Source: Flaccisagitta enflata
Lineage: Eukaryota
NCBI GenBank assembly: GCA_965153355.1
Contig: OZ231126.1
Coordinates: 30,008,001-30,072,000 of the forward strand
Direction: 5' to 3'
Length of the DNA: 64,000 nt
Positions 41,209 to 63,896 of this stretch are shown in pieces; position 1 is the stretch's first letter, and every line of letters begins with the position of its first letter. Both the position numbers and the translations under genes were made by a program. The notes beneath the pieces are model-generated. The model made no database searches. It had not been told where the DNA came from and saw only the letters and a list, made by a program, of their open reading frames with translations.

Positions 41209-52506
<11,298 letters not shown>

Positions 52507-53457
52507 ATGGGTTGGCGGGGGGGGGGGGGAAGAGGTTGGTTAACCTTGTTAGTTTTTTTTCGGCCTTTGTATACAAACTAAAAGGGGGTATCCGGGTGGG
52601 GGTTATTTACCCAGAGTCCAGAAACGGCTGAAACCTTAACCGAACTGTTATTGCCTTGACGAGGGAAGTTGTAGTATCACCACTTAGTGCCCCCCTGGCG
52701 AGACTTATTTCTCTATTATGCCTTATGAAAATGTATGCACGTTTCTCATTTAATGATCTGTTGAACATGTGATAAAAATGTTTTTGGGTAAAAAAAGAAT
52801 TTTTGTCAGTTATGTTAATTGTTGCATTCCCGTTGGCCGTCGCATTTTCTCCGTTAAAGTTACTCGTTTACAACAATCGAAGCTATTCATTGGTTTCCGT
52901 TTTTTTTTTTAACATTCCATACCGAATTTTTATATTTTACCGTCATCGCCTTTCTTTTATAGATTCTTCATATATACATCTGTTCAGTGCACGCTTCGTC
53001 GTTTCAATGGTACAATACAATACAATTAGCCGATGACTTGATGCTGTGAATTGCTATTGATGGATTCAGTAATTTCCACGACAGACGTAATGACTGAAAA
53101 CACCGACTCTCCTTCTTGCTCTTTGAACTCATGGACTGCAGTTGACGATGACTCTGATAAGAGGCCCGTCGGAGTCGGCGGATGGGATGGAACCGCGAGT
53201 AGCGAAGAAATGACGCGAGATGAAGACTTTCTGCTGATTGATGGATATTTGACCGCCTGCGCGTTGACGGAATTCGAAGCCGCGTCGTGCGACAACGTCA
53301 AGAGGACGATTGAAGCTGATGGCGAGGGGATTGAAGGAGGCGGAGGGAAGAGGAGAAAGACGTGATGGGGTTGTTGATGATGATGAGGGTGTATTTTTGA
53401 GGACAATCCACGATCGAAAAGGATGACGCGATGATATTAGAGTGACGCGGAGTGGAA

Positions 53458-53942
53458 CACAGCGCAATCTGTAGTGACATTAATGCCCCGGGGAATTCCC
53501 TGGGAATTTCCCCGTTACAATAATTTTATAAGTGAACCGGGCATAGTCTAAAAATGTCAGAATTTGATCCAGGGGGAATTCCCCGGGGAATCCCCCAATT
53601 AGACTAATTTATTTTCTTCATTTCTAAACTAAATGGGGCATATGCCTCGTTAAGTCCCCATTTAGTCCTTGATAATTTTCACAATAGATTTTGACCTGAA
53701 GAAAGCCACTGAAAAAAAAAGTTTACTGATTTTTAACGAAACATTTTTGATTAAACAAAACTAAACTAAATGGGGTATATGCTCTGTTAAGTCCCCATTT
53801 AGTGCCTGAATCATTTTTTTCACTAACTTTTAATGGGGCATAGAACCGGGCATATTCAAACTCTAACTTTTTTTTACCAGGGATATTGGGGCTTTTGCCC
53901 GGGGCATTAATGTCACTTTTTTGTACTACAGATTGCGCTGTG
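53458..53942. mobile_element. Transib/RAG-like non-autonomous element with RSS-like termini
   Basis: Perfect 18-bp TIR CACAGCGCAATCTGTAGT; 5-bp TSD TGGAA; second 17-bp inverted block GACATTAATGCCCCGGG. Confidence 0.8.
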
Positions 53943-54155
53943 TGGAAATGTTTATTCTGGTTAAAAGGGAATATCGTCAGTTTCTCTCTGCGACGTCGCG
54001 ATTATTGATAGTTCTGATAGACCCATGTTCTGAAATTATTATTTGTCTTTGTTGATTTTTAAAAAATAACGTTATCATTCACAGGCTACTACGGTATTTA
54101 TTAATTACGGTATTCTTTTGTGTCATTGGAATACTTGACAAACTTCGATACAGAC

Positions 54156-63896
<9,741 letters not shown>

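Follow-up and report, generated by a model that had tools for sequence, protein, structure and literature searches.

Transib transposons, ProtoRAG and other RAG-like (RAGL) elements, and RAG transposition share a signature of 5'-CAC ends and target-site duplications (TSDs) of invariably 5 bp (PMC1131882, PMC7204232, PMC4840297; these and the other published accounts used below are cited from excerpts). A GC-leaning target preference has been described for Transib (PMC1131882, PMC4840297). According to Kapitonov and Jurka 2005 (PMC1131882), terminal inverted repeats (TIRs) that resemble recombination signal sequences (RSSs), RSS12-like at the 5' end and RSS23-like at the 3' end, occur in Transib5 of Drosophila melanogaster and in Transib2_AG and the non-autonomous TransibN1-3_AG of Anopheles gambiae. 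The excerpted part of a 2021 review presents Transib families with 12/23-like ends as the only such transposons known besides V(D)J recombination. A 2023 preprint (bioRxiv 10.1101/2023.08.20.553239) describes for PflRAGL-A a TIR that is composed of a heptamer, a conserved TR2, a 10-bp asymmetric spacer and an AT-rich nonamer-like motif, and states that RAGL elements of both families can show such asymmetry. Here, we describe a 485-bp element with unequally spaced ends from a 64,000-nt stretch of Flaccisagitta enflata DNA (GenBank assembly GCA_965153355.1, contig OZ231126.1, positions 30,008,001 to 30,072,000; hereafter the window). An earlier annotation made from the letters of the window (the original prediction) had placed there, just upstream of an ISWI gene, a non-autonomous Transib/RAG-type element with 12/23-like ends. 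It had taken CAC termini with 5-bp TSDs to characterise Transib and RAG-like transposons, and the literature above bears this out.

According to our analysis, positions 53458-53942 are probably one member of a non-autonomous DNA transposon family of high copy number, a miniature inverted-repeat transposable element (MITE), of the Transib superfamily, a name that is used here in the wide sense with RAG-like elements included. The element is filed there because its CAC ends and 5-bp TSD are the published signature of Transib and RAGL elements. Coordinates follow the numbering of the window, of which the sub-stretch 53300-54100 (801 nt) was read in detail. The parts of the element are as follows:

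53453..53457, no strand: left copy of the TSD, TGGAA (sequence and empty-site contigs)
53458..53942, no strand: non-autonomous element (MITE), 485 bp (depth jumps at 53457/8 and 53942/3, heterogeneous loose ends)
53458..53475, plus strand: left TIR, 18 nt, the heptamer CACAGCG and 11 conserved nt (inverted-repeat search)
53476..53495, plus strand: left inner block GACATTAATGCCCCGGGGAA, adjoining the TIR, with ACATTAATG 12 nt from the heptamer (repeat search and arm alignment)
53490-53500, 53502-53512, 53573-53584 and 53585-53596, no strand: four sites of GC-rich palindromic motifs of the GGGAATTCCC type (repeat search)
53624-53672 and 53761-53809, plus strand: two direct repeats of 49 nt with 88% identity (repeat search)
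53895..53914, minus strand: right inner block, matching the left block at 19/20 positions (repeat search and arm alignment)
53915..53924, minus strand: 10 extra nt of the right arm, ACAAAAAAGT reading inward (kept in 5/5 of the diverged spanning contigs listed)
53925..53942, minus strand: right TIR, 18 nt (inverted-repeat search)
53943..53947, no strand: right copy of the TSD, TGGAA (sequence and empty-site contigs)

The 18-nt TIR, CACAGCGCAATCTGTAGT, is 100% complementary between the two ends in the inverted-repeat search, and the element thereby has the length, the perfect repeat with CACAGCG at both ends and the TGGAA duplication that the original prediction had assigned to it. A repeat finder calls a TIR of 19 nt, because one flanking A/T pairs as well. 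The ends of the element read 5'-CAC...GTG-3', and the CACAGCG heptamer agrees with the RSS heptamer CACAGTG at 6/7 positions and with the Transib consensus CACAATG at 5/7. No open reading frame (ORF) is found within the 485 bp. Each of the two direct repeats contains a perfect 11-nt stem, ACTAAATGGGG / CCCCATTTAGT, around a loop of 17 nt. At up to three mismatches, the TIR 18-mer is present in the window only at the two element ends (0.05 matches expected), and when the window was searched for CAC...GTG pairs with a TIR match of at least 12/14 and identical 5-bp flanks, this element alone was returned, compared with none in each of 20 shuffles. Other copies of the element were not found in the 64-kb window by the 18-mer, repeat and paired-end scans.

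The GGGAATTCCC-type palindromic sites fit the motif GGGRNWYYCC, which we take to be a kappa-B-type consensus. Of the 19 matches to this motif in the window, 14 are located inside the 485 bp; the expectation for the whole window is 5.8, and none of 100 shuffles reached 19. These sites may serve as subterminal sites of a transposase; alternatively, Rel/NF-kB-like motifs may be carried into the vicinity of genes as the family spreads.

The element belongs to a genuine mobile-element family that is dispersed and of high copy number. Sequence words are shared with the 801-nt stretch by 24 public runs, comprising 2 of one organism (coded A) and 22 marine metagenomes. The contigs of four runs (X1, X2, X3 and X7) were mapped to it at 80% likeness or more, and the marine metagenome runs X4-X6 and X8-X24, with their small word shares, were not used as evidence of habitat. 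In the four runs, 876, 959, 238 and 11 contigs fell on the stretch. The summed contig depth in X1, which is not to be read as a copy number, rises from about 139 in the flanks to 15,000-188,000 within the element, with the step exactly at 53457/8 and 53942/3. Contigs that cross an edge run into unlike sequence (at the left edge 53 in X1, 44 in X2 and 16 in X3), and their loose ends agree at only 0.39-0.49 at both edges, which indicates many different insertion sites. By likeness, the X1 contigs are divided into 199 at 99% or more, 274 at 95-99%, 260 at 90-95% and 143 below 90%, a spread that shows the family to hold young as well as old members.

Depth peaks over the two arms and is lowest in the middle of the element. 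In a derivative of about 87 nt, found in X1 and X3, 25 other letters separate the left arm (53458-53495) from the final 24 nt of the right arm (53919-53942), while X2 contains a similar short derivative with 38 letters between the arms. Other deletion joints skip 52-389 nt, and together with the short forms they indicate many deletion derivatives in the family. The copy in the window differs from the depth-weighted majority at 26 or more interior positions; among the rows listed (27 further rows exist), none of these differences falls within about 50 nt of either end of the element.

The insertion at this locus is still segregating, with an exact empty allele. One contig each in X1, X2 and X3 joins position 53451 to 53942 and thereby skips 490 nt, with six letters (GTGGAA) that fit either side of the joint. 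There are no letters between the two sides: one of these contigs is made up of 372 letters, 283 plus 89, and in another 64 letters are followed by position 65. Since 490 equals 485 plus 5, the empty allele has a single TGGAA, and the 5-bp target duplication at this locus is proven by the exact empty site. X1 also contains the occupied junction with 0 differences. The empty and the occupied haplotype differ at several flank positions (53334, 53356, 53393 and 53421 among them), and there is also a 6-nt insertion after 53374. The divergence between the flanking haplotypes amounts to about 3% over 150 nt, which points to a very polymorphic species, and for this reason 'segregating' need not mean very recent. 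The target TGGAA, a single site, contains 2/5 G+C. No listed contig carries both ends of one copy, and the TSD is known from this copy alone.

The two arms of the element differ by a single offset. Reading inward, the left arm passes from the 18-nt TIR directly into the block GACATTAATGCCCCGGG, whereas the right arm has the TIR, then ACAAAAAAGT, and only then the block, which begins at position 19 on the left and at position 29 on the right. A global alignment of 120 nt per arm yields 18/18 matches, a single 10-nt gap and 19/20 matches; beyond the inner block the homology is weaker but visible, with additional small indels, and extends over about 100 nt. This is the arrangement of the original prediction, in which the left end lacks exactly 10 bp and the shared block is about one helical turn closer to the terminus. 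Its account of the right end likewise agrees with ours: the heptamer CACAGCG and 11 nt are followed by an A-rich 9-mer, ACAAAAAAG, that matches the RSS nonamer ACAAAAACC at 7/9 positions and represents the first 9 nt of the extra segment. The left arm is without an A-rich 9-mer at 12 or 23 nt, a 23-nt spacer being followed there by CCGGGGAAT. An AT-rich 9-mer that is shared by both arms, ACATTAATG, is separated from the heptamer by 12 nt in the left arm and by 22 nt in the right arm. The resulting 12/22 layout consists of the heptamer, 11 conserved nt, 0 or 10 nt and the conserved AT-rich 9-mer, with a GC-rich block after it. As a set of signals these spacings may be read in more than one way: the right arm may have its A-rich 9-mer after 11 nt with no counterpart on the left, the shared AT-rich 9-mer may be the relevant one at 12 and 22 nt, or both ends may be of the 12 type with two different 9-mers.

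The 10-nt end asymmetry is a genuine trait of the main family. Among the 32 contig pieces listed (2074 more exist), the junction of left TIR and block is without the 10 nt in 6/6 diverged spanning contigs, and on the right the 10 nt are retained in 5/5, with a net length change of at most 2 nt in either case. Because these junction-spanning contigs have 3-15% mismatches, they stem from other insertions and not from this locus. The original prediction had named a deletion private to this copy as an outcome that would speak against it; aligned in the contigs of the public runs, the listed diverged copies that span either junction have the short-left and long-right layout in 11 of 11 cases. No indel at 5% of depth or more occurs in 53458-53519 or 53862-53942, the indel list being complete at that threshold. 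Contigs that leave the left arm at 53495 and enter a right-arm-like interior were found 13 times in X1, 15 times in X2 and 7 times in X3, and two opposite-strand joints, from 53492 or 53495 to 53833, agree with the same structure. Together they indicate a minor subfamily with a short arm beside a right-type interior.

How does this locus compare with the systems described so far? The idea itself is not new, as 12/23-like Transib ends were published in 2005 and the 10-bp asymmetry of a RAG-like element in 2023. The element has the same architecture as those families in a different sequence and adds a further family of known layout. With Transib5, Transib2_AG and TransibN1-3_AG, as far as these are described in the excerpts, it shares the CAC heptamer, the 5-bp TSD, ends that are offset by about one helical turn and the existence of non-autonomous members. 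Here, however, the block at 12 and 22 nt is ACATTAATG with a GC-rich palindrome and not an A-rich nonamer (a comparison made by description only), the A-rich 9-mer follows after 11 nt and at one end only, and the host is a marine animal and not an insect. PflRAGL-A of Ptychodera flava, according to the same kind of source, is alike in its heptamer, the adjoining conserved stretch, the 10-bp spacer asymmetry and the AT-rich distal motif, and both have 5-bp TSDs and signs of ongoing transposition. In contrast to our element, which has no genes and is far more numerous, PflRAGL-A carries RAG1L and RAG2L genes, and the sequence beside the heptamer is not A-rich in the element described here. Compared with the vertebrate 12/23 RSSs, the heptamer fits CACAGTG at 6/7 and ACAAAAAAG fits the nonamer at 7/9 with a spacer of 11 nt, while the second block is spaced at 12 and 22 nt; here, though, these are transposon ends and not gene-segment signals, and there is no matching nonamer at 23 nt on the other end. 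Hztransib of Helicoverpa zea (PMC4840297), a Transib that has been studied biochemically and is our model for the cut-and-paste route suggested below, has 5-bp TSDs and heptamer-like ends in common with the element; its TIRs are described in the excerpt as having little or no similarity to the nonamer, and its targets as GC-leaning.

Searches for a partner element returned little. A scan of metagenome contigs with the 18-nt TIR yielded four loci. Three of these (L002-L004) match the 18-mer only and were taken as chance. The fourth, L001 (6300-6740), has an identical 18-nt TIR followed by an A-run, matches the right arm at 27/29 positions and is preceded by TTCCT, to be compared with TTCCA, the reverse complement of the TSD. 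Its contig stops after 440 nt without an ORF and adjoins ORFs that resemble rhodopsin-type G protein-coupled receptors, and from its sequence L001 may be the end of a related, perhaps longer element. The pattern from TIR to block gave 0 matches in prokaryote genome contigs and 0 in viral contigs, and the TIR alone gave 0 in viral contigs. A match of 19 nt to the block in the genome contigs, in a bacterial metagenome-assembled genome (L005), shows no likeness beyond the word and was taken as chance. A literature search for the end motifs, with Repbase outside its reach, returned chance primer matches only. CACTA-type elements make a 3-bp TSD and hAT elements an 8-bp TSD; membership in CACTA/EnSpm or hAT was rejected on the 5-bp TSD, the C at the third base of the ends and the termini CACAGCG.

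Several explanations of these data were weighed. That the inverted repeat arose by chance or as an assembly artefact is refuted by the hundreds of contigs, the sharp edges, the exact empty site in three runs and the low chance expectation. It is improbable that the element is a MITE of another or undescribed superfamily that came to CAC ends and a 5-bp duplication by coincidence. Such an origin would be in keeping with a classification that draws on the ends and a single TSD, with a target, TGGAA, that is not rich in G+C and with a host lineage that is poorly sampled; yet 5'-CAC ends with 5-bp TSDs are the Transib/RAGL signature (PMC1131882, PMC7204232, PMC4840297), hAT ends are described as having G at the third base (PMC1131882), and the TSD of CACTA-type elements has another length. 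A similarly small chance is given to a partner that is a RAG-like (RAG1L-RAG2L) transposon and not a plain Transib. The succession of heptamer, conserved 11 nt, 10-nt asymmetric spacer and AT-rich block parallels the TIR of PflRAGL-A (bioRxiv 10.1101/2023.08.20.553239), and non-autonomous RAGL elements with 5-bp TSDs are reported from marine invertebrates (PMC7204232). However, by hand count the first 17 nt of the TIR agree with the protostome RAGL consensus CACTWMCAAACKTYKBB at only 9/17 positions, with CAA and not AAA at positions 8-10, and the excerpt speaks of 'a small number' of non-autonomous RAGL elements (PMC7204232), compared with hundreds of contigs here.

The remaining question is whether the asymmetry is put to use. 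The family might be an abundant, segregating Transib-type MITE with natural 12/22 ends whose transposase enforces short/long pairing of the ends, but we regard this as a rather unlikely reading. More likely than a used asymmetry is an inherited founder indel in a family that depends on no more than about 18 terminal nt, and to this explanation, by which the same Transib-type MITE received the 10 nt as a neutral indel between AGT triplets in a master copy and passed them on, with the terminal 18 nt sufficing, we assign a little less than an even chance. The 10 nt lie between two AGT triplets, the trace to be expected of one slippage or deletion, and indels in the arms are ordinary here, since the arms are homologous over about 100 nt with several small ones. 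The minor subfamily, at less than about 1% of arm depth, combines the short arm with a right-type interior, and in both the derivative of about 87 nt and L001 the TIR is followed by an A-run, with the GACA-type block at yet another distance. In the published excerpts, the poor nonamer similarity of the Hztransib TIRs (PMC4840297), the dependence of RAGL on the terminal 15-17 bp or so and the view that RAGL enzymes are insensitive to asymmetry (PMC7204232) point in the same direction, and all copies could descend from one founder. Against a neutral indel, the 10-nt gap is the sole indel in the terminal 38/48 nt, which are otherwise identical at 37/38 positions, and it amounts to about one helical turn; the offset persists in copies that are up to 15% diverged; and the same layout has been published for several Transib families and for PflRAGL-A (PMC1131882; bioRxiv 10.1101/2023.08.20.553239).

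A further point weighs against a used 12/22 pairing. The shared 9-mer ACATTAATG matches the RSS nonamer at only 5/9 positions, so that the displaced block is not a nonamer of that kind, and the A-rich nonamer-like 9-mer is present at the right end alone and is itself part of the 10-nt insert. Other points weigh against the Transib classification itself. The heptamer agrees with the Transib consensus at only 5/7 positions, and the first 17 nt with that of RAGL elements (PMC7204232) at 9/17. The TSD is known from a single copy, and TGGAA is not GC-rich when set against the GC-leaning targets of the literature. The 16 window ORFs scanned with Pfam included no transposase (the host genome was not searched), and the scans for a partner in the metagenome, prokaryote and viral collections gave only the one possibly related end, L001. 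Of the non-autonomous Transib/RAG-type element with 12/23-like ends that the original prediction had proposed, the absence of an ORF, the repeated family, the CAC ends with a 5-bp TSD and a family-wide offset have thus stood, and the likeness to 12/23 signals is weakened by the poor nonamer match of the shared block and by the one-sided A-rich 9-mer.

For the mobilization of the family we take the characterised Transib and RAG enzymes as a guide and posit that a RAG1-like DDE transposase encoded elsewhere would bind both ends. It would nick at the border of the CAC heptamer and excise the element by a nick-hairpin route, as the studied enzymes do, and insertion with a 5-bp stagger would leave the TGGAA duplication. 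That this transposase also recognises the difference in spacing, as between the two members of a 12/23 pair, is conceivable, although we consider it doubtful.

The element is located in the intergenic region between MCM3 and an ISWI gene, of which the following exons adjoin it:

51697..52506, plus strand: last exon of MCM3 (winged-helix C-terminus), with the stop ending at 52506 (ORFs and Pfam)
54156..54455, plus strand: first coding exon of an ISWI-type SNF2 ATPase, with the ATG at about 54156 and a distance of 214 bp from the right end of the element (ORFs, Pfam and PDB match)

Pfam places MCM AAA-lid and MCM3 winged-helix domains upstream of the element and SNF2-family exons downstream of it. 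The best PDB-chain matches of the SNF2 exon are SMARCA5/SNF2h and ISW1, by which the downstream gene is of the ISWI type, so that the position just upstream of ISWI given by the original prediction is confirmed. Since one haplotype carries the insertion 214 bp before the start codon of ISWI and another does not, the alleles could differ in the regulation of ISWI.

An MCM3 exon (49141-49800) was matched by proteins with 91-96% identity from the sources jgi, merc and lgn, whereas the named proteins, from many phyla and with echinoderms highest, reached at most 68%. In an MCM3 tree of the window sequence and 35 of 120 listed rows, chosen for taxon spread, the window sequence has a long branch (0.77) in an unresolved polytomy of non-arthropod bilaterians. 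The host lineage therefore appears to be without an annotated close relative in the protein collection. The MCM3 and ISWI introns contain simple-sequence tracts (49800-50250, 51700-52050 and 59900-60750) with frames of the FLSFF/KERKK and HTHTH/CVCGG types on both strands, which are low-complexity DNA and not genes. Minisatellite-like repeats at 56190-56860 in an ISWI intron, with open frames on opposite strands, probably represent another repeat family.

Few natural transposons with a 12/23-like spacing of their ends have been recorded; the accounts excerpted here name a small number of insect Transib families, one RAGL element from an oyster, and PflRAGL-A. Such families bear on a live debate, namely whether the signal sequences of antigen-receptor genes derive from a RAG-like or from a Transib element. 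The present finding leaves the understanding of how such elements work unchanged. It adds a data point and possibly a tractable system, in that the family is abundant, its copies range widely in age and at least one insertion still segregates. If the pairing of short with long ends were indeed enforced, the origin of the 12/23 rule would become open to testing in a living system of high copy number from beyond the vertebrates and insects.

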